A stretch of DNA of 58,769 nt, filler included, from Bacteriovoracaceae bacterium (GTDB taxonomy: Bacteria > Bdellovibrionota > Bacteriovoracia > Bacteriovoracales > Bacteriovoracaceae): NCBI GenBank assembly GCA_018649885.1. It is 3 parts of 3 records of this genome, joined end to end, with 100 filler letters (N's around TTAATTAATTAA, not from the genome) between each part and the next. Parts side by side here need not be neighbours in the genome. Positions count along the whole stretch, not along the records: positions 1 to 26,893 come from JABIHA010000114.1; 2 more parts are not named here. One strand, 5' to 3'. Positions 2,143-40,283 of this stretch are shown here, piece after piece (the stretch's first letter is position 1; every line of letters begins with the position of its first letter). The notes under the pieces are model-generated. The model was not told the DNA's origin and did not search any database. It saw only the letters and a program-made list of their open reading frames with translations. The translations under genes and the position numbers were made by a program.

Positions 2143-5085
2143 TTGAGGAAAACAATGGAAGACAGTAAGAAAACAACCTCTAAAATCCAAGATACAAGAT
2201 CCAACGCAGGGGGGAATGGGTACTGGCAAGATGTACACCAAAAAGCTCTTTCGGAAGATGAATTAAAAAATGAGTTCATGGAAAGTGAGCAAGATCGTTT
2301 TGTGGCCGTTAAAAGCAGGAGAAGCTTTCTACAGATAATGGGCTTCTCGGTATCTGCACTTCCACTTGCTAGTTGCATGAAAATCCCTACTAAAAAGGCC
2401 ATCCCTTTTTTATATAAAAATGACACTATCGTTCCTGGTGTGGCGACTTGGTTTGCCACTACAACTAGAGAGTGCACAAGTGGATGTCACCTTCTTGTAA
2501 AAACAAGAGAAGGAAGGCCAATTAAGGTTGAGGGGAATGAAAAATCTTCTCATACTCGTGGTGGAACTTGTCCTCAGTGCCAGGCAAGTGTGTTGTCACT
2601 ATATGATTCCTATCGTTTAAGATCATCTATGGTTGATGGGGCTGGTAGAGACTGGGCAGGCTTTGATAGTGTGGTGGCCACAAAATTTGCAGCTGTTAAA
2701 GAACACAACCAAAAAATTGTTTTAGTTACACCAAGCACTAATAGTCCAACTGATTTGAACCTAATCTCTAAATTTAAAGAGCATTTTGGAAATGTTGATC
2801 ATATTTGTTATGACGCCATTTCTTACGGTGGTCTGGCCAAGAGTTATTCGAAAGCTTTTGGTAATGGCGCTCTTCCCAACTTTAAACTGGGGAATGCAAA
2901 ATTAGTACTTAGTTTCGGAGCAGACTTCTTAGGTTCTTGGTATTCTCCCATTAAATTTACAAAAGATTACTCAAAGCTTAGAGATCCAGGTTTAGGCCGG
3001 AATATGTTGAAGCATATCCAGGTAGAATCTGTAATGAGTTTGAGTGGCTCCAATGCCGACAAGAGGATTGTGGCTTCAAAGGCCAGACAAAGAGAAATGC
3101 TATCTCAGCTTCTCTCTCTTGTAGAAAGCGGTGGCGCGGCAGGTGGTAGAAGCACTGAAGTTCGAGATTTATATCAAAGCTTAGCAAGCTCCAGAGGAAA
3201 ATCTCTCGTTGTCTGTGGTGACAATGATTTTAAAACTCAAAATATCGTCATTAAAATTAATAAGGCCCTCGGAAATTTTGGAAAGACCATTGTGGCTTCA
3301 AAGTCTAGTCATCATAAATGGGCAATAGATAGTGAGTTCGAAGCTCTTGTTAATGGTCCAGGGCCAGCTGCTATTATCTTTTGGGGAACAAATCCTGCTT
3401 ACTCTTATCCTAAAGGGTCCAAATTTGCAGATTTTCTAAAAAATATTCCCGTGAGACTGGCACTTACTACTGCAGAGAATGAAACTTCTAAAATGTGTAA
3501 CTACGTTGCGGCCACAAACCACTCTCTTGAGAGTTGGGGTGACAGCATCACTCTTGATGGTGAGTTAGCATTTTCTCAACCTGTAATTCAAGCACTCTTT
3601 GGAACCAGAATGGCGGGAGAGACTCTTCTGGCCCTAATGGGAAGTAGTACAAAATATTATGATTTTATGAAGGAATTCTGGAGAAAGAATTTCTTTTCAA
3701 AGCAAAGCTCTAAGTTAAGTTTTGTGGATTTTTGGAATCACTCTCTTCACGATGGTGTGGTAAGCCTTGCTGGCACAGTTCAAGAGGTAAGCAAGTTTGA
3801 TAGCTCTATTCCCACCAATGTTAAAATTTCTAAAAGAGTTCCGGCTTCTCAATCATTAAGCATTGAGTGCTTCGAAACAAATGTTATGGGTGATGGATCT
3901 TGTGCTAACAATCCTTGGCTTCAAGAGCTTCCCGATCCTATAACAAAAATGACCTGGGGAAATGCCGCCCATATATCTCCAAGTACTGCCTCATCTCTAG
4001 GAATCGTTTCAGGAGATGTCGTTAAAATTAGTGGTGGCGAAAAAGCAATTGAACTACCTGCTATTGTTCAACCAGGTGTTGAGCCTGGAACTGTGGGCAT
4101 CAGTTTTGGTCACGGTAGAAGTGTCACTGGAAAAGTTGGGCTTGGACTTGGTGCCAATGCTTTTGGCTTTGTAAGGTATAACGGAGAGTGTTTTTCCCAT
4201 TTTGCCGAAGGTGGTATTAGCCTTGAGAAAACGGGACGAAAAGAAAAATTGGCCCAAACTCAAACTCACCATAGTATGGAGGGAAGAGATATTGTTAGAG
4301 AGCAAACTCTTTCAGAATTCCAGCATGGGACAGGACATAAAGGTCACGACGTAAAACTGATTTCCATGTGGAGTGACCGAGAGAAAAAAGGTCATCAATG
4401 GGCCATGGCCATTGACCTCAGTAAGTGCACAGGTTGTTCCGGCTGTATTGTTAGCTGTAACGCTGAAAATAATGTGCCAGTTGTAGGTAAAGAAGAAGTT
4501 ATCAACAGAAGAGAAATGCACTGGATGAGAATTGATCGTTACTATAAAGGTGATGATGCTAATCCTGAAGTTGTTCACCAACCACTAAATTGTCAGCACT
4601 GTGATAATGCTCCTTGCGAGACTGTGTGCCCGGTACTTGCTACTGTTCAAAGTTCCGATGGACTTAATCAACAAGTTTACAACAGATGTGTGGGAACAAG
4701 ATATTGTGCTAACAACTGTCCCTATAAAGTGAGACGGTTTAACTGGTTTAGATATCCCCATGAAGATCCAGTCGAAAATATGGTTTTGAATCCCGATGTT
4801 GCCGTTCGTGAACGTGGAGTAATGGAAAAGTGCTCAATGTGCATTCAGCGAATTCAAGAGGGGAAAATTGAAGCGAGAAAGCAAGGCAGAGAATTGCAAG
4901 ATGGCGATATAAAGCTTGCTTGTCAGCAAAGTTGTCCTGCTGATGCTATTGTCTTTGGTGACATGGCAAATCCTAAATCGAAAATATCAAGGTACTTAAA
5001 AGATAAGAGAAATTATACGGTTTTAGAAGAGCTCAACGTTAAACCTAGAGTTAGTTATTTAACCAAAATAAGGAATAAGGAATAA
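2143..5085 (+). CDS. actB: Alternative complex III ActB (molybdopterin-oxidoreductase-like domain plus Fe-S domain, TAT-exported)
   Basis: Early 'YWQ' motif, twin-arginine 'SRRSFL', '[10 protein letters not shown]', '[11 protein letters not shown]', and C-terminal ferredoxin motifs [32 protein letters not shown]...CQQSCP. Confidence 0.93.
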
Positions 5086-5089
5086 TCCT

Positions 5090-6475
5090 ATGTCAGGTGA
5101 TAATCATATTGCAAAAATAAGGACTCCTTTGGTTACAAAGGACCGTAAGTATCGCCAAATATCAGATGATATTCTGAACAGTCTTGAGAAAGGCCCAGGC
5201 ATAAAATGGACTATATGTTTTTCCATATCTTTTCTAGTTCTATTAATGGGAATTGGTGTAATTGCTTATCAAATTAGCACTGGTATTGGTGTCTGGGGCC
5301 TTAATAAAACCGTAGGTTGGTCTTGGGATATAACAAACTTTGTATTTTGGGTTGGTATTGGCCACGCTGGAACTCTAATTTCTGCAATTCTTCTTTTGTT
5401 TAGGCAAAAATGGAGAACTTCAATAAATAGGGCCGCTGAGGCCATGACGATTATTGCTGTTTGTTGTGCTGGGATCTTCCCAATCATCCATATGGGTAGA
5501 CCTTGGCTCGCGTTTTGGATGTTTCCTTATCCAAATACTAGAGGGGACTTGTGGCTTAACTTTAGATCTCCACTTTTGTGGGATGTTTTCGCCATTAGTA
5601 CCTACTTAACTGTTTCAGCTGTCTTTTGGTATATTGGTTTGATTCCAGACCTCGCCACTGTAAGAGATAGAACTGATTCTCCACTTCGAAAAAAGATTTT
5701 TGCATTACTAAGCTTTGGATGGACTGGTTCACACAGAACTTGGCACCGTTACGAAATACTTTGTTTGATACTTGCAGGTCTTGCTGCTCCACTTGTTGTG
5801 TCAGTTCACACTATTGTGAGTATGGACTTTGCCACCTCTGTAATTCCTGGATGGCATACCACCATTTTTCCCCCTTACTTTGTGGCAGGAGCTGTTTTTT
5901 CTGGATTTGCAATGGTTTTAACTCTTCTTTTAATTACAAGAAAAGTGATGAACTTCGAGCATTATATTACCAAAGGTCATATCGATGCCATGTGCAAGGT
6001 ACTACTTGTTACAGGGATGATGGTGGGGCTTGCCTATAGCACTGAATTTTTCATGGCCTGGTATAGCGGTAATGAATATGAAAAATTCACCTTTATGAAT
6101 AGAGCAATGGGACCCTATGCTTGGGCTTACTGGACGATGGTTTCTTGTAATGTGATTTTTCCTCAAGTTCTATGGTTTAAAGCTGTAAGAAGTAATCTAG
6201 TGTTAGTCTTTATAATGTCGATTGTTGTCAATATCGGTATGTGGTTTGAAAGGTTTGTAATTATCACAACTTCTCTCCATAGAGATTATCTACCATCTAG
6301 TTGGGCGATGTATTCTCCAACTTGGGTTGAGGTCTGTACTTTTATTGGAACCTTTGGATTATTTTTCACCCTTTTCTTTTTATTTGTTAGGTTCCTACCT
6401 GCAATTGCAGTGGGTGAAGTGAAAAGTGTTTATAAGTTTGCAAGAAAAAATAAAGACCAAGTGGAGAATGTATGA
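5090..6475 (+). CDS. actC: Alternative complex III ActC (NrfD/PsrC family quinol-binding membrane subunit)
   Basis: '[23 protein letters not shown]', '[10 protein letters not shown]', 'NFRSPLLWD' and '[15 protein letters not shown]'. Confidence 0.95.
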
Positions 6476-6990
6476 AAAAACGGTATATGCTTGGCGTTTT
6501 TGATGACGAAGAAGAGCTGGTGCATGCAACAGAAGAGCTTGTAAGTGCGAAGATAGAAATCTTTGATATCTACACTCCTTTTCCTGTTCATGGTTTAGAT
6601 GACCTTCTCAATATTAAAAGAAGTAGGCTTCCCATTATTACCTTCATAGCAGGGGTAATAGGACTTGTAGTTTCTATTGGTTTTCAGGTGTGGACTTCTG
6701 CTTTTTCCTGGCCAATTAATGTGGGTGGAAAGCCGATGTTTTCGATTCCGGCTTTTGTGCCTGTTTCATTTGAAGTAACTGTTTTATTTGGAGCCTTAAT
6801 AACTGTGGGATTCTTTTTTCTACGATCTTGTCTTTACCCAAGTAAAGTTGCAGTACTCTTTCACCCTCGCCAAACAGACGACAAATTTATTTTGGCCTTG
6901 GAGTGTAGTGGGGCCAAATTTGATGAAGAGAAATTAGGTGAAAAACTACGAGTGCTAGGAGCTAGCGAAGTAGATATTTCTTATAAATAA
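6472..6990 (+). CDS. actD: Alternative complex III ActD (DUF3341)
   Basis: '[10 protein letters not shown]', 'WPINVGGKP' and 'FEVTVLF'; overlaps the actC stop codon. Confidence 0.93.
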
Positions 6991-6995
6991 TTAGG

Positions 6996-7550
6996 ATGTT
7001 AGGCGTGAAAACTTATCAATTTTCCATTTTTGTTTTGATCTTTTTAGTGGGATGTTCAAAAAACCCTAAAGAGAAAGGGTATGAGTTTATGCCGGAGATG
7101 GTGCACTCACAAGCTTATGAAGCATACTCAGATAATCCTGTAACAAAGAATAAGAAAACAATGCAACTTAAGGCTTTCGGCTCCATAGCTAGAGGTCATC
7201 TTCCTTTTACTTATGGAAGTGGTGATAAAGAAGCACAAAGGGCAGGGGAAGAATTGGTAAACCCTATTGCTTTCAATAAAGACAATGTGGCGAGAGGTAA
7301 ATATATGTATGAAATTTACTGCCTTTCTTGTCATGGAGTTTCAGGTGAGGGTGATGGCCCCCTAATTCCGAAATTTCCCAATCCACCAGATTTTAAGACT
7401 AAAAGGGTTCTCAGCTACCTCGATGGTAGGATGTACCACATTATTACTAGAGGCTCAGGTGATATGCCTTCTCACTCTGCTCAAATTTTCCCAGAAGATA
7501 GGTGGAAATTGATTCACTATGTGAGAGTAATGCAAAACCTAAGAAAGTGA
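6996..7550 (+). CDS. actE: Alternative complex III ActE monoheme cytochrome c lipoprotein
   Basis: Lipobox LVGC, 'FMPEM', a single CLSCH, and a distal 'MPSH...DRW'. Confidence 0.92.
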   Translation: MLGVKTYQFSIFVLIFLVGCSKNPKEKGYEFMPEMVHSQAYEAYSDNPVTKNKKTMQLKAFGSIARGHLPFTYGSGDKEAQRAGEELVNPIAFNKDNVARGKYMYEIYCLSCHGVSGEGDGPLIPKFPNPPDFKTKRVLSYLDGRMYHIITRGSGDMPSHSAQIFPEDRWKLIHYVRVMQNLRK

Positions 7551-7563
7551 TTGGAGATTATAG

Positions 7564-8736
7564 GTGAAAGATCAATTTAAAATTCCTACAAACAGAAAAA
7601 ATATGTGCATCGCAATGATTGTTCTCGGTGCTCTTGTTCTGGCCTATTCATTTTATTCACAAGGCACAAGGGCCTGGACCAATGTACTAATTAATAACTT
7701 TTATTTTACAACACTAGCGCTTGGAGGACTGTTCTTCATGGCCCTCACTGGAGTTGCTAAAACAAGCTGGATGACTCCCTATAAGAGAATTCCTGAGGCG
7801 ATGATGTCCTTTCTACCTGTGGCCTTGGTCTTAATGGCCGTTTTAGCTTTTTTTGGGATTCACTCTTTGTACGAGTGGAGTCATGTTGAAGTAGTCGCAA
7901 AAGATCCTCTTTTGTCTAAGAAAACCGCTTATCTCAATACTAACTTTTTCATTTTAAGAATGGTCTTTTTCTTTGGGATTTGGATCATTTTATCTAGAAT
8001 CTTCTTGAAGTTTTCTCATGCACAAGATTCAGGAGTGGATAAATCAAAGTCAATCGTAAAGGTTTCGGCCATCACATTAATTTTGTTTGGTCTTAGTTTT
8101 TCATTTGCCAGCTTTGATTGGATTATGTCCCTTGAACCCCATTGGTTTAGTACTATTTTTGCTATCTACACTTTTTCTGGGCTCTTTGTTTCTACAATTG
8201 CATTTATCACACTCACTATTATTATCCTTCAAAGCTTGGGTTATTTAAGAGATGCTGTTAACGAAAATCATTTCCACGATTTGGGCAAATGGCTTTTTGG
8301 GTTTTCAACATTTTGGGCCTATATCTGGTTTTCTCAATATATGCTGATTTGGTATTCAAATATTCCAGAAGAAACAGAATACTTTGTTCTAAGAGAGCAT
8401 CATAATTGGGATTGGCTCTTTTATTTTAACCTTCTGATTAATTGGCTTATTCCATTTTTTGCTCTAATGAGCAGAAACTCCAAAAGAAACAAATTCATAC
8501 TCTCTAGAGTGTGTGTTCTTCTTCTCGTAGGGCACTGGCTTGATATCTATTTAATGGTTTCTCCTAAGGTTTTCGAGATCCACGGGCTTGAAGCCACAGT
8601 GGGACTGGTTGAGATATTTACTGCCTGTGGTTACGCTGGGCTGTTTTGTCTAGTTGTGGGGAATTATCTATCTAAGCATAAGATAAAAAGTGAAGCAGAT
8701 CCTTTTTATAAAGAAGGGCTGCACTTACACCAGTAA
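7564..8736 (+). CDS. actF: Alternative complex III ActF membrane subunit
   Basis: 'KRIPEA', 'DWIMSLEPHWFST', 'HDLGK' and 'SQYMLIWYSNIPEET'. Confidence 0.93.
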   Translation: MKDQFKIPTNRKNMCIAMIVLGALVLAYSFYSQGTRAWTNVLINNFYFTTLALGGLFFMALTGVAKTSWMTPYKRIPEAMMSFLPVALVLMAVLAFFGIHSLYEWSHVEVVAKDPLLSKKTAYLNTNFFILRMVFFFGIWIILSRIFLKFSHAQDSGVDKSKSIVKVSAITLILFGLSFSFASFDWIMSLEPHWFSTIFAIYTFSGLFVSTIAFITLTIIILQSLGYLRDAVNENHFHDLGKWLFGFSTFWAYIWFSQYMLIWYSNIPEETEYFVLREHHNWDWLFYFNLLINWLIPFFALMSRNSKRNKFILSRVCVLLLVGHWLDIYLMVSPKVFEIHGLEATVGLVEIFTACGYAGLFCLVVGNYLSKHKIKSEADPFYKEGLHLHQ

Positions 8737-12157: not shown

Positions 12158-13300
12158 CTATATTCTGGGAGTCACTAATGTTTTAAAGAATCTAAAGAAG
12201 AACACCAAGTACCCCAGAGTCCAAAAACCCATGGTGCTATGAAGGGCAGGGTAATAGTGATCAAATGCTATTAGGGGGATCAGCACTCTCATTACGGCCC
12301 CTAATAAGGTGGCCAAGTACATAAAGATCATCCACCTGTCTGCTCGAATTTCTCTTCCTGTGTGCCCTAGAACTACTCTGCCCATGATTCCTAGACCCAT
12401 TATCCCTAGAAGACCTGAGGTAAGTAGGTGGGTAGTGATTGTTCCATTTAAGAGAATAGGGAAAAAGGGCTCAAGCGCCAAACTGAGTAGGTGGAGTAGC
12501 ATAAAAGCATAGGCCACATAGAGTATCCATAACATGGGGAACTTTCGTGTATGCAGGGGTTTCCAGCGCATATAACGGTAGAGATTTGTTATGAGACAAA
12601 ATAAGGAAAGGAAAACCTGAATACTAACAGGATAATAAGGATAGGGAATCAACAGTATAAGCGGGATCACACACAGTAAATTGAGCTTGAATGGTATTTC
12701 TTCAAAGGCCTTTGGAGCCTTTTTGCTTAGAAAGAAGGGAATGACCTTGCCAGCAACTGCAGCGATTATCACTCTTATCAAACCTAAAGCGATCACCTTA
12801 CCTGTTTCCGTATAGGCCACATTTTCTACTAAAGCTCCCCAGCTAAAGAGAAATTTAGATAGACCAAAGACTGTAAAGAACACTCCCAAGGCAAATGAGA
12901 TTTTTCTATTTTTTCTAACAAGATTCACCACTAATATCAGCAGCAAAAGGGAGAAAAGTACCCCAAAGCTGAAAGTGATCTGTTTAGAAAAAAATGGGTA
13001 AAATAGGGCCAATCTTTCTAGTACCCATAGTAGAGATAGAGGCAAGATTGCTTTGATACCATAGCTTTCGGTATTGGCCCAATGGGCTCCGGCCGTCAGG
13101 ATAAAGCCAGAAAGTAGAGCTGAAGTAAAACCAAATAGCATTTCATGGATATGCCAGTCGGTCATATCAAAGTACTCACCGTAATAGGTGTAATCGCTAA
13201 CTAGAAAGCAGATAAAGAACATGGGGACAAGTGTGGCCGCAAGGGAAGCAAGCAAGAACATGGCCCTGAAGGGTTCAGAGAAAACGGTCAAATATCTCAT
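12158..13300 (-). CDS. nnrS: NnrS family nitrosative-stress membrane protein
   Basis: 'PFRAMFL', 'WHIHEMLFGF', 'GFILTA', 'HLLT.G' and 'RVVLGHTGR'. Confidence 0.92.
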   Translation of the reverse strand: MRYLTVFSEPFRAMFLLASLAATLVPMFFICFLVSDYTYYGEYFDMTDWHIHEMLFGFTSALLSGFILTAGAHWANTESYGIKAILPLSLLWVLERLALFYPFFSKQITFSFGVLFSLLLLILVVNLVRKNRKISFALGVFFTVFGLSKFLFSWGALVENVAYTETGKVIALGLIRVIIAAVAGKVIPFFLSKKAPKAFEEIPFKLNLLCVIPLILLIPYPYYPVSIQVFLSLFCLITNLYRYMRWKPLHTRKFPMLWILYVAYAFMLLHLLSLALEPFFPILLNGTITTHLLTSGLLGIMGLGIMGRVVLGHTGREIRADRWMIFMYLATLLGAVMRVLIPLIAFDHYYPALHSTMGFWTLGYLVFFFRFFKTLVTPRI

Positions 13301-13418
13301 GCTGCAATCTTATCAATCAAGGGAACAGTTGGGTAGCCGTAAAAGACAGCTGCAGTGCAGATTTAGGCAATCCCCATTTTCGGGACTGCCCCCTGTGTAG
13401 TTGGTTTTGTCTATTATG

Positions 13419-13877
13419 TTATGCCGTGGCCCTATAGTTATGAAGACTTTTAATGTCATACCTAAAGGGTAGCGGACCCATGAGCCACTCTTTTTCAGAG
13501 TCTAGCAAAAGGTGCATCAGATCTGTTGAGGTGACAATTCCCAGCAGATGCCCGCTTTGATTTGTAACTGGTAAGCAGTCAATTTTGTTATTGAGCATAA
13601 TACTGACGGCGTCACTAACACTGCACTTTTCATCACAAGTGCGAACTACTGTGGTCATGATTTTTCCAATGTGCATATTGGGCACAATCATAACTCCATC
13701 TTCAAGAGTTGAGTGAAGGTATAGGTCTCTATCTGAAACAATTCCGACAATCTCCTTGCCTCTTATAACAGGTAAATGCCTACAGCGAAGGGCCGTCATA
13801 ATATGGTTGGCATCTTTGATGCAATCATCCTCTTGCAGGGTCACAACAATCTTTGTCATAGTAGTTTTTACGTTCAT
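13419..13877 (-). CDS. Tandem CBS-domain protein
   Basis: 'RHLPV..IVGIVSDRD' and 'CLPV...LLGIVTSTD'. Confidence 0.9.
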   Translation of the reverse strand: MNVKTTMTKIVVTLQEDDCIKDANHIMTALRCRHLPVIRGKEIVGIVSDRDLYLHSTLEDGVMIVPNMHIGKIMTTVVRTCDEKCSVSDAVSIMLNNKIDCLPVTNQSGHLLGIVTSTDLMHLLLDSEKEWLMGPLPFRYDIKSLHNYRATA

Positions 13878-14063
13878 ATGCTCCTCCTTTTTTAATCATG
13901 GTCCTCTCTCTATTTATCGCATGGATGGGGGGGAGATTTGATGATCCTAGTTATGAATTTGGATGAGTTTCTTTGTAAAAGTAATTGATTTTCTTTACCT
14001 GTAATTAATTAAGTCAGACTAAAAAACTTTGGTACTCCTGGTGATGACTTAAGGGGACAATTT

Positions 14064-14098
14064 TTTACAGATGCTAGTGGCATAGGCAAAATAGGCAA
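14064..14098 (+). promoter_or_regulatory. Putative sigma70-type promoter for a leaderless RT transcript
   Basis: TTTACA (14064) - 17 nt - CAAAAT (14087) - 6 nt - ATG 14099; no Shine-Dalgarno sequence. Confidence 0.4.
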
Positions 14099-15415
14099 AT
14101 GATTAGCTGGAGTAACATTTATTGTGAGGCCGAGCTGTATAAAGCTGCAGTTGCCTTATACACCAGACCCATTTTCAACTGGAAGAAGGCACTCTCAAGC
14201 GGTGTGGACCAAAAGAATTTTTACGATTTTGCCAGTGTTGGTCTGAGGGGGATTGATAAGATTCACCGCAAGCTACGAAGAAAAAGCTTTCAATTTGGGA
14301 ATGCAAAAAAAATTGATTCCCAATTCAATTCACGGATGCGAGAGATTTATATTTATTCTTGGGAAGATAGGCTTGTGGATTTGGCCCTATTTAGAATGCT
14401 CAATCAGGCGATGCACCATCAATTTGCACAGAACTCTTACGCCTACAGGGCCCAGGGCTTTGGAATTGATTGTTGCCAGAAAGATATCGTGAAGACGTTG
14501 CACCAGCATAGTTCACCTCATTTTCTCATTAAAAGAGATATTGTGAATTATTTTGGTTCCATTGATCATCAAATTTTACTGGATAAACTAGCACAGTATA
14601 TTGATCCCCATGATTATTTATTCAAGTTATTAGAGCAAAGAGTGCGATTTTCTTATGAAGATGAGGCACAAACTAAAGTGGACTCTGTGGTGGGAGTTCC
14701 CTTTGGCACTTCTATTGCTGGTCTTTTGGCCAATATATACTTTACTAAGCTAGATCATCAAATGAAGGTCATAAAAGGGCTGAAATATTTTAGATATGCC
14801 GATGATTTTTTAATTCTTTGCAGGGATCAAAAGCTATTTAATTTGGCAAAAGGTCTATTCGCTGATGAGCTGATAGAGCTTAAGCTTACCAGCAAAAAAT
14901 CTCATGAAATAAATTTGGAGATAGGAGAGTCTGAATACTTTGATCATCTTGGCGTGCGGTTTTTTGGAAGTGGTCACACTAAATTGACTGTGGAAAAGCA
15001 AAGAAAGATACAAAATTTATTCAAATACGCCTTGAGAAGGAAAAAGAGTAAAATATTGAAAATAAAAGACCCTCATAAAAGGGCCAAACTAGCAGTGACA
15101 CTGATCAAAGAGGCCCTAGAAAAAGGGATGAGAAATGTAGGAATCATTGATTACTACTTGAGGCATTCCAAGGATGAGGCGCAATTAAAGTCACTTGATT
15201 TGTGGCTTGCTCAATTAGTGTTAAAATTCTCACTGGGAAATGGAAACAAAAAAGGAAACTTTAAAAAAATTAGCTTCCAAACTCTAAGGAAAATGGGTCT
15301 TCCCTCACTAGTTCACAGAAGAAGGTTATTAGCTCACTCAAAAATTGATTCACCTTTTTTCATTTGGAATAACCACCAAAAAGAAAAAGGGGCCAAGGCC
15401 TTCCATCCCCACTAA
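14099..15415 (+). CDS. Reverse transcriptase, group II-like, with no intron RNA detected
   Basis: RT blocks 'SSGVD', 'EDRLV', 'SYAYR', 'KRDIVNYFGSIDH', 'GVPFGTSIAGLLANIY', catalytic 'RYADD', 'FDHLG', and a thumb/maturase-like C-terminal 'GLPSL'. Confidence 0.93.
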   Translation: MISWSNIYCEAELYKAAVALYTRPIFNWKKALSSGVDQKNFYDFASVGLRGIDKIHRKLRRKSFQFGNAKKIDSQFNSRMREIYIYSWEDRLVDLALFRMLNQAMHHQFAQNSYAYRAQGFGIDCCQKDIVKTLHQHSSPHFLIKRDIVNYFGSIDHQILLDKLAQYIDPHDYLFKLLEQRVRFSYEDEAQTKVDSVVGVPFGTSIAGLLANIYFTKLDHQMKVIKGLKYFRYADDFLILCRDQKLFNLAKGLFADELIELKLTSKKSHEINLEIGESEYFDHLGVRFFGSGHTKLTVEKQRKIQNLFKYALRRKKSKILKIKDPHKRAKLAVTLIKEALEKGMRNVGIIDYYLRHSKDEAQLKSLDLWLAQLVLKFSLGNGNKKGNFKKISFQTLRKMGLPSLVHRRRLLAHSKIDSPFFIWNNHQKEKGAKAFHPH

Positions 15416-15424
15416 ATAAAACCA

Positions 15425-15453
15425 TTGAATCAGTTGTTTTAGTATGAAACAAT
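15425..15453 (+). promoter_or_regulatory. Putative promoter for the ncRNA and Zn-ribbon gene
   Basis: TTGAAT (15425) - 17 nt - AACAAT (15448) with TG in the extended -10 position. The expected start (~15458-15460) coincides with the 5' arm of the long stem. Confidence 0.5.
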
Positions 15454-15457
15454 TGTC

Positions 15458-15652
15458 AGATGGTTAAGGACAAAAGGGGAGTGATTGCTAGGTCATAATT
15501 ATGACTTTCTTCCCTGACTCAAAAGCACAGAACCTAATTTATTTGTGGAAGAGAATATTCTATGTAGATGGGTGTAATTGAAGTCGGTCCAGATACTTAA
15601 AAGTATCAAGACAGACGTTGTAATAGTCACACTCTTTTGACCTTTACCATCT
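15458..15652 (+). ncRNA. Putative RT-associated structured ncRNA
   Basis: 15458-15490 pairs with 15621-15652 (~28 bp including G-U pairs). It encloses hairpins GTCAT-AATT-ATGAC, TCTTCC/GGAAGA (with an inner CACAGA/TTTGTG) and GTCGGTC..GATACTT-AA-AAGTATC..GACAGAC. Confidence 0.7.
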
Positions 15653-15686
15653 TTGATTATGATAGTTGACTACTTCGGGAGGTGAA

Positions 15687-16061
15687 TTGGGAATCGCATC
15701 ATTTTTAGGTCGATGGAATAAATGCCCATACTGCCAAAAATACACTGCCAAGAGCTTTCTGGGCTCAGTTGAGTGTGCAACTAGGACTTGTAAACACTAT
15801 AATCTGGGTTTTAGTGAAAAATATCAGCACGCTTTTTATGGCGACGAAATCAAAGGTTCAACTTCAAGTGTGAGAGGCGATAGGGTCTATATCAAATACA
15901 AAAATCACCGTGGTGAGGATGTGCTATTTAATGGCGAGACAAACTCGCTTGAGCTAGTAAAAAATCATCTCAAAGTAAAAGTTTTCCCAAAAGACCAATT
16001 TATCTATTTAAGTAAGGACAAAATCTCAAATTATCGTGATTTCTCAGGTCTTGTTAATTGA
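15687..16061 (+). CDS. Small Zn-ribbon plus WYL-like domain protein
   Basis: Strong SD GGGAGGTGA before TTG 15687; CPYC-x13-C-x4-C. The C-terminal 'VYIKYKNHRGE ... IYLSKDKISN' resembles the WYL pattern IxYxxxxG ... FRLDRI. Confidence 0.65.
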   Translation: MGIASFLGRWNKCPYCQKYTAKSFLGSVECATRTCKHYNLGFSEKYQHAFYGDEIKGSTSSVRGDRVYIKYKNHRGEDVLFNGETNSLELVKNHLKVKVFPKDQFIYLSKDKISNYRDFSGLVN

Positions 16062-16157
16062 TCCTTTAAGTTCAATACCACCAATTCTACAACTACAGCT
16101 AAACTTAAAGTATTTTCAAAAAATGCCGAACTTGATTGTGCGAAATGAGGAGATATT

Positions 16158-17531
16158 ATGAATAAATTTAGTTTAGTAACCTTGGTGGCATTTTTGCTTG
16201 TTACTTCTTTCATAACAAATGGATACTCAAGTGAGTCCGGATCTGATCGTAGCGTTGCACTTTCGCTAACAGGGATCGCAATGCTTGAAGAGCGAGAGGT
16301 TTCTCGAATAAATATTTACCATGAGCATTTCAAAGACTATTTTGAGAAGGTCAATAAAGGCGGTACTTTTAATTCCATCGAAGAGTTTTATATTCAAAGA
16401 AAATTTTCTGAGGTTTTAGCTGATAAAGATGCTAGTGGGGACCTGAGTGAAGAAGAAATTCAAGCTGCAGTTGAAGAAAGTAAGAGTATTAGAGCAGCTG
16501 CTCTTGCAGGCGATGATGAAGGAGATCTAATGTTCTCTTTCGATTCGGAAGATTCAGAGCAATCCGGGGAGCCAAGGCCACATGATCTCTACAAAGAAGA
16601 ACTTAAAAAAAGAATAGCAGAAAATGATCCTGTTCTTTCTCGGACAATGGCACGGGCAGGAAGAGTGGTTAATGCCTCAATTCTTGCTGACTATAAAGAA
16701 GAGTTGAAAAAAGTGAACTCCCCAGAAGCTTATATGGAAGTGCATCGAAAATTCATAGCAGATTTGAAAAAGGCGGACATAACTCTTTCAACTAAATTGT
16801 TAGACGATTTAAATTTTTTCAGATACACGAATGCCTATGTGAAATTTTATCTTCCAAATAGTAATGAACCTCCACTGAAAGGAATGAAGCTTCCTCATCC
16901 CTTTGAATATGCAAAAGAGATTGCAGATGGTGATTTTTTATCTACTAGTGAAGCAAAATTAGTAAGTGCACTATCATTATCTAATCCAAAGACATGTCTA
17001 AGATGGGATGATGGATTTCCTCCGCGTATTTACCGAGATAAGGAAAATGGATGTGGAGCCATATGTGCTGGTGCGGTAAAGTGTAAAAGCTTTTTTGGTA
17101 AATACGAATCAAAGATTGTTAGTTGTAATCCACGAATTTGTAAGGATAAGAATATTTCACTGGTAGATATGGCCAAAGAGTGTGCAGAAATGGTTGGCTA
17201 TGAACCTCCAGCAAAAGCTGAAAAGAATTTCGACGCCGATCCATGGACTATCTTTGAGAGAGGTCCCTATGTTTTTAAAAATAAAGATTACAGAGGAAAT
17301 ACCTGCGTCGGAATTTGTGTGGCCGTATCAAATGCAGAGAGCATAGGCCGCGATTTTAGTGGAGGTGAAGTAAGTAATCGAGTGAGCAAGATAACGACTT
17401 GTCATCCAAAAAGTTGTGCAAAAGGTGCAAAGGCTTGCTGGGATGATCCAGATTATTCCTCTAAAGACATCAAGTCCTGGAGCGATAAGAAAAGCTCTGA
17501 AGCTGATTCCGGTGGATCAGTCTCAGAATAA
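16158..17531 (+). CDS. Secreted hypothetical protein with a duplicated Cys-rich C-terminal module
   Basis: SD GAGGAG, signal peptide, and two similar 'C..IC...(x)..C.P..C...AK.C' units. Confidence 0.7.
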   Translation: MNKFSLVTLVAFLLVTSFITNGYSSESGSDRSVALSLTGIAMLEEREVSRINIYHEHFKDYFEKVNKGGTFNSIEEFYIQRKFSEVLADKDASGDLSEEEIQAAVEESKSIRAAALAGDDEGDLMFSFDSEDSEQSGEPRPHDLYKEELKKRIAENDPVLSRTMARAGRVVNASILADYKEELKKVNSPEAYMEVHRKFIADLKKADITLSTKLLDDLNFFRYTNAYVKFYLPNSNEPPLKGMKLPHPFEYAKEIADGDFLSTSEAKLVSALSLSNPKTCLRWDDGFPPRIYRDKENGCGAICAGAVKCKSFFGKYESKIVSCNPRICKDKNISLVDMAKECAEMVGYEPPAKAEKNFDADPWTIFERGPYVFKNKDYRGNTCVGICVAVSNAESIGRDFSGGEVSNRVSKITTCHPKSCAKGAKACWDDPDYSSKDIKSWSDKKSSEADSGGSVSE

Positions 17532-26893: not shown

Positions 26894-26993
26894 NNNNNNN
26901 NNNNNNNNNNNNNNNNNNNNNNNNNNNNNNNNNNNNNTTAATTAATTAANNNNNNNNNNNNNNNNNNNNNNNNNNNNNNNNNNNNNNNNNNNN
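26894..26993. other. Artificial contig linker
   Basis: N44-TTAATTAATTAA-N44, with stop codons in all six frames. Confidence 0.98.
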
Positions 26994-40183: not shown

Positions 40184-40283
40184 NNNNNNNNNNNNNNNNN
40201 NNNNNNNNNNNNNNNNNNNNNNNNNNNTTAATTAATTAANNNNNNNNNNNNNNNNNNNNNNNNNNNNNNNNNNNNNNNNNNNN
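40184..40283. other. Artificial contig linker
   Basis: N44-TTAATTAATTAA-N44. Confidence 0.98.

Follow-up and report, generated by a model that had tools for sequence, protein, structure and literature searches.

Does a reverse transcriptase (RT) gene that is followed by a foldable gap and a short open reading frame (ORF) belong to one functional unit, and, if so, to which kind of RT system? This question is raised by a locus at positions 14064–16061 of a 58,769-nucleotide stretch of DNA, hereafter the window, from a Bacteriovoracaceae bacterium (assembly GCA_018649885.1). A first-pass annotation, made from the sequence alone, had read the locus as a candidate three-part system consisting of a group II-like RT, a structured non-coding RNA (ncRNA) and a Zn-ribbon/WYL-like protein. 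According to the analysis presented here, the trio is apparently related to the RNA-guided RT systems used in conflicts between bacteria and viruses, and seems not to have been described before. Its parts in the window are the following:

14099–15415, plus strand: RT, an intact ORF of 438 amino acids (aa) with a YADD motif; Pfam RVT_1, E-value 7.9e-19
15458–15652, plus strand: structured ncRNA with a conserved core at 15476–15651, identified by its fold and by covariance model R1
15687–16061, plus strand: small-protein ORF of 124 aa, with a C4 Zn ribbon and a small beta-barrel

The RT, the ncRNA and the small ORF are co-oriented and form a module of ~2 kb. As had been noted, the module sits between unrelated genes, namely a CBS-domain gene on the minus strand (13419–13877) and a 457-aa ORF (16158–17531). 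A single contig bearing the trio makes up positions 1–26893 of the window, and the runs of N at 26894–26993 and 40184–40283 join it to other assembly pieces. The view that the locus fits no standard layout was upheld, and its three-part order was found to be conserved across phyla.

A conserved RNA beside the reverse transcriptase

The 275 nt that follow the RT stop codon (15416–15690) fold at −73 kcal/mol with a z-score of −2.64, and only one of 200 shuffled sequences folded as well; the fold of the 221 nt located 5' of the RT is not more stable than that of shuffled sequences (z-score, +0.71). Covariance model R1, when run on 15476–15651 of the window, gave 90.6 bits (E-value, 2.4e-24). The earlier description of the gap as mostly one fold of ~195 nt holds. 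The RNA comprises ~180 bases and is closed by a long helix, in which ~15458–15486 pairs with 15625–15652. Its elements, all on the plus strand, are as follows:

15476–15486 with 15625–15635, plus strand: P1, the closing helix, lengthened in the window to ~15458/15652
15490–15507, plus strand: P2, a variable hairpin
15508–15513, plus strand: 5' arm of a pseudoknot (TCTTCC), lying after P2 and pairing with 15547–15552
15517–15573, plus strand: P3 stack
15547–15552, plus strand: 3' arm of the pseudoknot (GGAAGA), in the apical loop of P3
15574–15583, plus strand: J3/4, a conserved single strand
~15584–15615, plus strand: P4, a hairpin of variable sequence
15616–15624, plus strand: J4/1, a conserved single strand

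The near-invariant single strands are UGCCAG ahead of P2, GAAGCAG within P3, a strand of the UAUNGAA type between P3 and P4, and CGUUU right after P4. Structure statistics were obtained for 51 sequences chosen from 66 distinct ones. RNAalifold returned 46 pairs, 38 of which show compensatory changes, and the pseudoknot was then added. With the pseudoknot included, the structure has 52 pairs, 97.7% of the cells are paired, and 42 pairs carry compensatory changes on both sides. None of the 500 shuffles matched any of the observed pairing measures, and in a control in which the pairing partners were slid by 1–3 columns, pairing amounted to 39–51% and double changes were seen at 15–22 pairs. The helix of the pseudoknot is paired in 99.7% of cases, and four of its six pairs change on both sides: the arms read CUCUC/GAGAG in the consensus, CUUCC/GGAAG in the window, and AUCC/GGAU and AUCCC/GGGAU in copies from the viral contigs described below. 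The covariance model of the gap, which had been proposed as a check, supports an RNA family. The RNA is a conserved four-helix junction locked by a covarying pseudoknot, i.e., more than a foldable gap.

Searches against Rfam returned chance-level rows only for the window region, for 10 homologous loci (at the gathering score) and for the RNA of locus L033 (at E ≤ 10). No Rfam group II family was found at E ≤ 10 in window 13700–16400 or in L033 5250–5560, or at the gathering score in the 10 loci, which agrees with the earlier remark that an intron domain V is lacking. Three candidate features of the RNA were tried and rejected. The likeness of P3 to group II domain V (an AGC, a G–U pair and a bulge) is supported by no model. 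A telomerase-style "AUGG...AUGG" repeat in J3/4 lies partly in helix P3a and is unconserved. A stop-free frame like that of DRT2 was sought in the window RNA, all six frames of which hold at least two stops; open frames occur in the RNAs of GC-rich homologues (21/51 on the plus strand and 37/51 on the minus strand), and are unremarkable for the composition of these sequences.

Homologues were surveyed with one genome per species, which gave 252 pattern matches, 195 of them encoding a relative, and the best 80 of these 195 were taken as loci L001–L080. When the DNA past the PFFxW codons was aligned, a block conserved in nucleotide sequence lined up with 15458–15652 of the window, and a small ORF came immediately behind it. 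In 79 of the 80 loci, R1 matched the sequence that immediately follows the RT on the same strand, with scores of 112–184 bits. The remaining locus, L019, has no downstream DNA, L080 is cut off, and 29 of the 79 loci lie outside the training set of R1. On the minus strand the scores were 17–33 bits, versus the above 112–184 bits on the plus strand of the loci and 90.6 bits in the window. Homologous RTs with neither a downstream structure nor a Zn-ribbon neighbour had been named in the first-pass annotation as the finding that would speak against such a module; the RNA was present in 79/80 loci and the small-protein gene in 75/81, and the module withstood this test. Among 121 genomes sampled from one acidobacterial family, the same five hold both a match to the RT profile and an adjacent R1 RNA, and the other 116 hold neither; the source genome of the window has a single copy each of RT and RNA. 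In the genomes tested, the RNA was never found without the RT, and the co-occurrence of the two is strict.

More distant relatives came from a scan of IMG/VR, in which seven contigs of 125–364 kb (L084–L090) were found to encode RTs that are 34–40% identical to the RT of the window over most of its length. These RTs retain FRYADD (HRYADD in L089) and SVAIIDYYLKH. In a quick IQ-TREE analysis, six of them form a clade split from the 81 cellular rows with an SH-aLRT value of 99; L089 is outside the tree, as the motif filter dropped HRYADD. With its filters off, R1 detected the RNA in four of the seven loci. In L084 (45 bits) and L090 (42 bits) it immediately precedes the RT, and it is found on the strand opposite the RT both in L089 (50 bits) and in L088, where three copies are present (3938–4103, 4107–4263 and 4690–4847; 24, 22 and 19 bits, respectively). 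Judged by eye, a more divergent RNA occupies the same place in L085–L087. The arms of the pseudoknot covary again in the viral-contig RNAs. No homologue of the small protein was found within 5 kb in any of the seven loci (best E-value, 0.32). Since the viral-contig clade keeps the RNA, albeit moved, but is without the small protein, RT and RNA are the conserved core of the system. Their association outlasts rearrangement, which argues for a physical partnership over mere adjacency. Given this sister clade, one may also ask on whose side in the conflict the system acts.

"Viral" is used here as called by IMG/VR; the neighbours of the RT in L084–L090 include SMC-like, radical-SAM and DNA polymerase III alpha-like genes, as well as many unknown ORFs.

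The placement of the RNA bears on a second reading, in which the RNA acts in cis, either as the mRNA leader of the small-protein gene or as a 3' untranslated region or operator of the RT message, and the RT or the small protein binds it and sets translation, much as a group II intron maturase binds a region of its own mRNA. Such a role would suit the cellular loci, in which the RNA ends 10–60 nt before the start of the small protein, and locus L021, where the RNA and the small gene are duplicated as a unit. It would also suit L084 and L090, in which the RNA abuts the RT start, and the GC-rich homologues, where the RT frame enters the RNA, so that RNA and message are physically one. However, in the viral-contig loci the RNA persists with no small-protein gene within 5 kb, in L088 and L089 it occupies the strand opposite the RT, and the Shine–Dalgarno sequence and the start codon fall outside the conserved structure. 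In addition, a 185-nt pseudoknotted junction with invariant loops exceeds the needs of such known leaders, and a strictly conserved polymerase site implies a template, which a cis-regulatory element does not supply. Weakened by the viral-contig loci and sustained by the RNA-then-gene order and by L021, the cis-regulatory leader is the main rival to the proposal made below; we regard it as unlikely, though deserving to be taken seriously.

The reverse transcriptase and the small protein

In the window, the YADD motif of the RT is located at residue 233, and the ORF is intact, as had been annotated. The strings NAxxH and VTG, which are motifs of retron RTs, are both absent from the protein, and a string search thereby bore out the earlier observation. 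The RT is group II-like, with a thumb/X region and a family-specific C-terminal segment that ends at about SPFFIW. A word-indexed protein search with the RT as the query scored 8000 candidates, 675 of them at E ≤ 0.001; among the best 120 of these 675 matches, homologues are 42–51% identical over 97–100% of the RT. An alignment of 23 sequences contains ~100 invariant positions, including SYAYR, DYYLxH and a C-terminal block GLPSLxHRRR...PFFxW. F/YRYADD is invariant in 23/23 of the aligned RTs and is also kept in the viral-contig clade. Catalysis by the RT is under selection, as the sequences indicate by the invariance of F/YRYADD and of many other positions. An invariant hydroxyl residue mirroring that of DRT10 was not seen at the C-terminus in the 23-sequence alignment.

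Comparison with the curated NCBIfam models gave 129.4 bits for the group II RT/maturase TIGR04416 (cut-off 300; 331 of 353 model positions, the thumb/X region included), 59.3 bits for Drt3a (cut-off 200), 52.8 bits for Drt2 (cut-off 390), 50.3 bits for the St85 retron model NF038233 (cut-off 235), and 18.1 bits for Drt4 (cut-off 450). Among the PADLOC models, the generic RT reached 131 bits, RT_UG17, the best specific model, 124 bits (E-value, 2e-36), RT_UG26 114 bits, and Drt9 an E-value of 7e-25. In the PDB, the family profile best matched Cas6-RT-Cas1, group II RTs and chain 9ioa (E-value, ~1e-19); G2L4 scored below the group II RTs (E-value, 3e-14; ~56 bits, 55.8), retron RTs gave 4e-12 (Ec83) and weaker values, and Drt2 gave 9e-11. 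The RT misses the curated cut-offs of the group II intron, retron, Drt2, Drt3a and Drt4 models, and no curated model claims the family. "Group II-like" is a fair description of what its sequence suggests, group II maturases and UG17/DRT10 lying at about the same distance from the RT.

In GC-rich homologues, the RT frame reads on into the ncRNA, which adds 30–90 C-terminal residues (AFSPxPEAAA..., LVGERRHLSRGLIEV...) and is located at ~5320–5500 in most of the loci L001–L080 (e.g., at 5322–5494 in L001). These seemingly conserved C-terminal tails are translated ncRNA, because the RT of the window stops 60 nt ahead of the RNA, and the conservation of protein sequence there reflects constraints on the RNA. 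The spacer of ~60 nt between RT and ncRNA is peculiar to the window; according to the alignment, the ncRNA of the homologues begins ~20 nt past the SPFFxW codons. The annotation error is systematic, and RT lengths of 470–520 aa in the databases are inflated compared with the 438 aa found in the window.

The frame of the small protein opens at TTG 15666. TTG 15687 was taken as the start of a 124-aa product ending at 16061, because the N-terminus then fits those of the homologues (M-G-hydrophobic) and a Shine–Dalgarno-like sequence precedes it:

15677–15684, plus strand: Shine–Dalgarno-like GGGAGGTG, read from the sequence, two bases ahead of the TTG start

The gene follows the RNA in 75 of the 81 sources (67 by BLAST clustering and 8 by ORF/motif search), and in the other six sources the sequence breaks off at most 478 bases past the RT ORF. 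There is no other conserved neighbour, the next-largest cluster being a CLC channel with 23 loci. Members of the family consist of an N-terminal peptide M-G-[FL]-[LF]-D-x-L, a C4 Zn ribbon, a low-complexity linker and a barrel domain of ~60 aa. Most of them add two C-terminal helices (RERQVLxYHKK...YPxW), which the window protein and a subset of the others do not have. The four cysteines of the Zn ribbon (C13, C16, C30 and C35) are invariant in 27/27 aligned proteins.

When these 27 members were compared with Pfam, DNA_ligase_ZBD was matched by 14 (best E-value, 1.5e-5) and zf-tcix by 9, i.e., only zinc-finger families were found, apart from a single member with a match to WYL (PF13280; E-value, 0.12); the window protein itself has no WYL match. 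AlphaFold2 (AF2) modelling predicts a five-stranded barrel with a helix at residues ~64–122, the per-residue confidence (pLDDT) exceeding 90 over residues 66–122 and the means of the models being 79 and 86. A Foldseek search with the model of the small protein gave no match at E ≤ 0.001, and an exhaustive structural search gave best Z-scores of 5.7–5.8, to SH3-like domains. The barrel further resembles Hfq/Lsm and the WYL domains of PafBC, CapW (bound to single-stranded DNA, ssDNA), DriD (ssDNA-bound) and BrxR at Z-scores of 4.0–4.6; over all matches to these four WYL proteins the scores span 3.5–4.6, tied with those of Hfq/Lsm and SH3 folds. Since these values lie within the range common to small barrels, "WYL-like" stays a remark on the predicted fold, which resembles a small SH3/Sm-type barrel at that level only. 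From the annotation of a 124-aa Zn-ribbon/WYL-like protein, the ORF, the Shine–Dalgarno sequence and the Zn ribbon have stood, and membership in the WYL family (one weak Pfam row in 27; Z-score, ~4) is at most tentative.

A word-indexed search with the small ORF retrieved only itself, and the family emerged from the alignment of the loci and from an exhaustive profile search, in which 270 representative proteins were found in 1.84 billion, 91 of them at E ≤ 1e-30. As a family, the small protein is absent from Pfam. It is not universal, either: the viral-contig clade is without it, and two Planctomycete copies have no Zn ribbon. The latter are encoded by the tandem RNA and small-gene units of L021 from Planctomycetaceae (RNAs at 5304–5485 and 6253–6433, ORFs from ~5504 and from 6449); the N-terminal peptide and the barrel are retained in both proteins, and the four cysteines are missing. 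In P0170 (411 aa), the N-terminal half of the RT, up to just before YADD, is fused to a complete Zn-ribbon/barrel protein. It is without the C-terminal half of the RT and without the ncRNA, and seems to be a fusion or deletion form. Five further proteins of 403–454 aa (P0172, P0176, P0225, P0255 and P0268) carry 3–4 barrel repeats together with copies of the C-terminal helix motif, and end in a ribosomal L7/L12 domain (PF00542; E-values, 1e-5 to 2e-10). Two of these five have N-terminal hydrophobic segments. A metagenome scan for multi-barrel/L12 proteins returned one contig of 1.6 kb, with neither context nor RNA.

Distribution and genomic setting

Of the 80 loci, 69 are labelled as Acidobacteriota-type. 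The other 11 are assigned to Planctomycetaceae (2), Verrucomicrobiales, Elusimicrobia, Coatesbacteria, Eisenbacteria, Binatia, FCPU426, Limnocylindrales, the Patescibacteria group and an unnamed bacterium, and at least nine phylum labels occur among the loci. At E ≤ 1e-30, the RT was found in none of 40 relatives of the source genome, 24 of which belong to the same family; it turned up in two of the 151 genomes from one order and in five of the 121 from one family, the defining genome being counted in each. In the RT tree, the non-Acidobacteriota rows are interspersed among the Acidobacteriota, and some of this interspersion across phyla could be binning error. The RT of the window forms the deepest cellular branch, the placement being uncertain because the branch is long (1.46).

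In several studies, the locus of the window recurs almost unchanged in marine metagenome assemblies (contigs of four runs were compared). At least 20 marine or seawater metagenomes are listed as runs carrying it, and no RNA run is among the matches listed. Position 14319, in the RT gene, is A in the contigs of all four runs and C in the window, the locus being otherwise identical. In Acidiferrum-like genomes, the flanks of the module are syntenic. The module is rare, patchy, horizontally spread yet locally stable, and accessory.

Scatter of this kind, over at least nine phylum labels, would be expected of a mobile or formerly mobile retroelement, and the order of an RT ORF followed by a 3' RNA recalls retroelements that recognise their own 3' ends; the RNA would then be the recognition element at which the RT begins to copy its own transcript. 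The module, however, is single copy in each of the five genomes checked, has no endonuclease or integrase in it or beside it, and is not flanked by terminal repeats in the window, where flanking repeats were considered as element ends and a scan of 13300–16900 gave short chance matches only. The small gene, moreover, sits downstream of the supposed 3' end. No member of the family was found in 72,556 plasmids, all 3300 matching records being less than 60% identical to the RT (the best 40 of the 3300 rows are 24–31% identical and mostly annotated as ltrA or cas1), nor in 50,697 GenBank phages, where none of 37 RT matches reaches 80% coverage of the query. A retroelement is therefore highly improbable in our estimation.

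The 130 ORFs that flank 34 diverse loci encode transporters, metabolic enzymes, regulators and three PIN domains; no integrase, recognised defence gene or SLATT was found among them, and no SLATT among the 21 ORFs of the window contig. Such housekeeping settings, and the synteny within a lineage, are what might be shown by a domesticated RT whose substrates are nucleic acids of the cell, e.g., in DNA repair, with the RNA as a scaffold or guide, the small protein as a binder of DNA ends or ssDNA, and no part in defence. A Zn finger similar to the zinc-binding domain of DNA ligase is present in 14 of 27 members, and a free-standing group II-like RT with a role in repair, G2L4, is described in the portions available of 10.1101/2022.03.14.484287 and PMC11761039. 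But the RT is very rare and patchy (0/40, 2/151 and 5/121 genomes) and has relatives on viral contigs, and G2L4 differs in its YIDD and in having no reported partner RNA, its structures scoring 56 bits with the family profile. We consider a repair function distinctly improbable.

CLC chloride channels with CBS domains adjoin the module in 23 loci, with DUF2207 and LemA frequently found on the opposite flank (CBS/CLC flanks occur, e.g., in L001, L003, L045, L046, L062, L066, L071 and L076), and the neighbour in the window (13419–13877, minus strand) is a CBS-pair protein. This recurrence is probably lineage synteny plus coincidence.

The 26.9-kb contig has 21 ORFs, none of which is a cas gene according to Pfam, and the number of tandem repeats in it is zero, as expected from the earlier report that cas genes and an array are lacking. 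The absence of a pair of template and variable repeats (TR/VR) and of avd, reported likewise, was confirmed: within the 3.6 kb scanned (13300–16900) there is no direct repeat longer than 28 nt, and no Avd family is among the Pfam matches of the contig. Apart from the RT, the contig encodes NnrS, the CBS protein, peptidases and respiratory-complex genes. Among the last is an alternative complex III-like set at 2143–8733 (a molybdopterin/4Fe-4S subunit, NrfD, ActD and cytochromes c), which is preceded by a nitrate-reductase gamma-like gene and is unrelated to the RT module.

Two minor features were recorded in the locus:

14064–14092, plus strand: promoter-like site (TTTACA, 17-nt spacer, CAAAAT) from a consensus scan, with 9/12 matches; a weak candidate
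15431–15455, plus strand: small hairpin in the centroid fold, inside the ~60-nt spacer from the RT stop to the ncRNA; not conserved

The promoter-like site is a weak candidate because the scan for promoters and terminators performed at chance level, with 10 promoter-like sites found in the region versus 8.2 expected from shuffles. An inverted repeat of 20 nt (85% complementary) between 14315–14334, inside the RT gene, and 15676–15695, in the Shine–Dalgarno/start region, is probably due to chance in AT-rich DNA.

Proposed mechanism and comparison with known systems

The reading that we prefer, to which we assign a probability of about one half, is that of an accessory RT–RNA complex that copies part of its RNA, is served by a nucleic-acid-binding partner, and probably has a role in virus-related conflict. 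The RT would bind the folded RNA to form a ribonucleoprotein and would copy a short single-stranded part of it into complementary DNA (cDNA), as DRT2, DRT9, DRT10 and retrons do; these analogies are taken from the sections available of PMC12632851 and 10.64898/2026.04.29.721553. The candidate template is the near-invariant CGUUU directly 3' of P4, and P4 may serve as the template boundary. In DRT10, the template loop directly follows a boundary stem-loop, and in DRT9 there is a conserved U tract, as stated in the available text of PMC12632851. The small protein may bind either the RNA or the single-stranded product. No effector is visible, and a defensive function, if there is one, would have to be carried out by the reaction product or by the partner protein. 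The rare, patchy and horizontally spread distribution, together with the relatives on very large viral contigs, suggests that the module is accessory and probably takes part in virus-related conflict. From the binding of the RNA by the RT to the templating and its site, the mode of priming, what the small protein binds and what purpose the module serves, the scheme is modelled on the systems named above.

Several points weigh against it. The templating step is drawn purely by analogy, and the candidate template is variable, reading CGUUGU in the window and being degenerate in one of the copies in L088. A stop-free repeat gene of the DRT2 type is unsupported, all six frames of the window RNA being stopped. 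No nuclease, membrane protein, SLATT or toxin effector is evident at the module, and its neighbours are housekeeping genes and not defence islands, those on the window contig being respiratory. In the Acidiferrum-like genomes, the synteny of the flanks implies that the locus is stably inherited there. Finally, the RNA of the cellular loci always lies just ahead of the small gene, and L021 duplicates both together, as would fit a cis-acting leader.

A more specific and decidedly doubtful version of the RT–RNA complex, again built on analogy, would have the enzyme work in the manner of telomerase, DRT9 or DRT10: with P4 as the boundary and the pseudoknot positioning the template, CGUUU would be copied repeatedly into homopolymeric or short-repeat DNA, which the Sm/WYL-type barrel would capture, in a system shared by many phyla and giant phages. 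If this were true, no conventional toxin effector would be involved, and the barrel is in some relatives repeated 3–4 times and fused to L7/L12; it would also add one more independent connection of group II-like RTs with telomerase-style synthesis.

Among described systems, DRT10 (UG17, formerly G2L3) is one of the closest. It consists of an RT, an ncRNA and a SLATT protein, the ncRNA lying upstream of the SLATT gene. Like the module described here, it has three parts, among them a multi-stem-loop ncRNA and a compact RT that is group II-like and comparable in size, and its template loop behind a boundary stem-loop, as presented in the available part of PMC12632851, resembles the P4–CGUUU geometry. 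In contrast, the partner of DRT10 is a SLATT membrane protein, whereas a soluble Zn-ribbon/barrel protein is found here, and the RNA lies here between RT and partner, while that of DRT10 is upstream of SLATT. As far as they were compared, the two RNAs belong to unrelated families, neither of which is in Rfam. Membership in UG17 is not established, because the 124 bits obtained with RT_UG17 are no better than those of the generic RT (131) or group II (129) models. As for other UG classes, UG26 is linked to a YcjD-type endonuclease, and DRT11 corresponds to UG5.

DRT9 (UG28) and DRT2 (UG2) likewise pair an RT with a cognate structured template RNA, which is located upstream, as it also is in the viral-contig clade. 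For DRT9, the template is a universally conserved U tract in the text available of PMC12632851. Unlike in these two systems, the RNA of the cellular clade lies downstream of the RT, and the third gene differs. DRT2 differs further, since the window RNA has no stop-free repeat frame and the Drt2 model gives 52.8 bits versus 390. With retrons, the module shares an RT, an adjoining ncRNA that a long terminal helix closes, and an accessory protein. However, its RNA follows the RT, both in the window and in 79/79 informative cellular loci, instead of preceding it as an msr-msd does; the RT is without NAxxH and VTG, and the St85 model gives 50 bits versus 235. A lineage of type XI-like retrons, TXI_C2like, recruits WYL proteins, but is reported from Bacteroidota only, according to the part of PMC13712802 that is available.

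The nearest named relatives of the RT in sequence are group II RT/maturases and CRISPR-associated RT-Cas1 proteins. It differs from group II introns in that Rfam finds no intron RNA in the window or in 10 homologous loci and in being single copy, and from RT-Cas1 in being a free-standing protein of 438 aa on a contig without cas genes or an array. A diversity-generating retroelement would call for features that are missing here, there being no repeat pair in 13300–16900 and no Avd match in Pfam. G2L4 and G2L5 resemble the RT in being group II-like, free-standing, without an intron and equipped with a conserved X domain. They differ from it in the YIDD of G2L4 (available text of 10.1101/2022.03.14.484287 and PMC11761039) versus YADD, and in the DN at the active site and the N-terminal extension of ~500 aa in G2L5, neither of which is present here. 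Four additional G2L clades were reported by Toro et al. 2019, as cited in the accessible portion of PMC8632793, and the RT family may already be labelled among them.

No description of the trio was found in the literature searched in full text, a scope that does not extend to subscription papers and supplements. We thus describe a new RT clade, a new RNA family (not in Rfam) and a new partner family (not in Pfam), within the known kind of RT + ncRNA (+ partner) modules. Recent modules that pair an RT with an RNA include DRT2, which writes a gene, DRT9, which makes homopolymers, and DRT10, which makes telomerase-like repeats. Each new RT–RNA pairing has so far been a new mechanism and sometimes a new tool, and the present trio is compact (~2 kb), with ~200 natural variants on which experiments can be designed.

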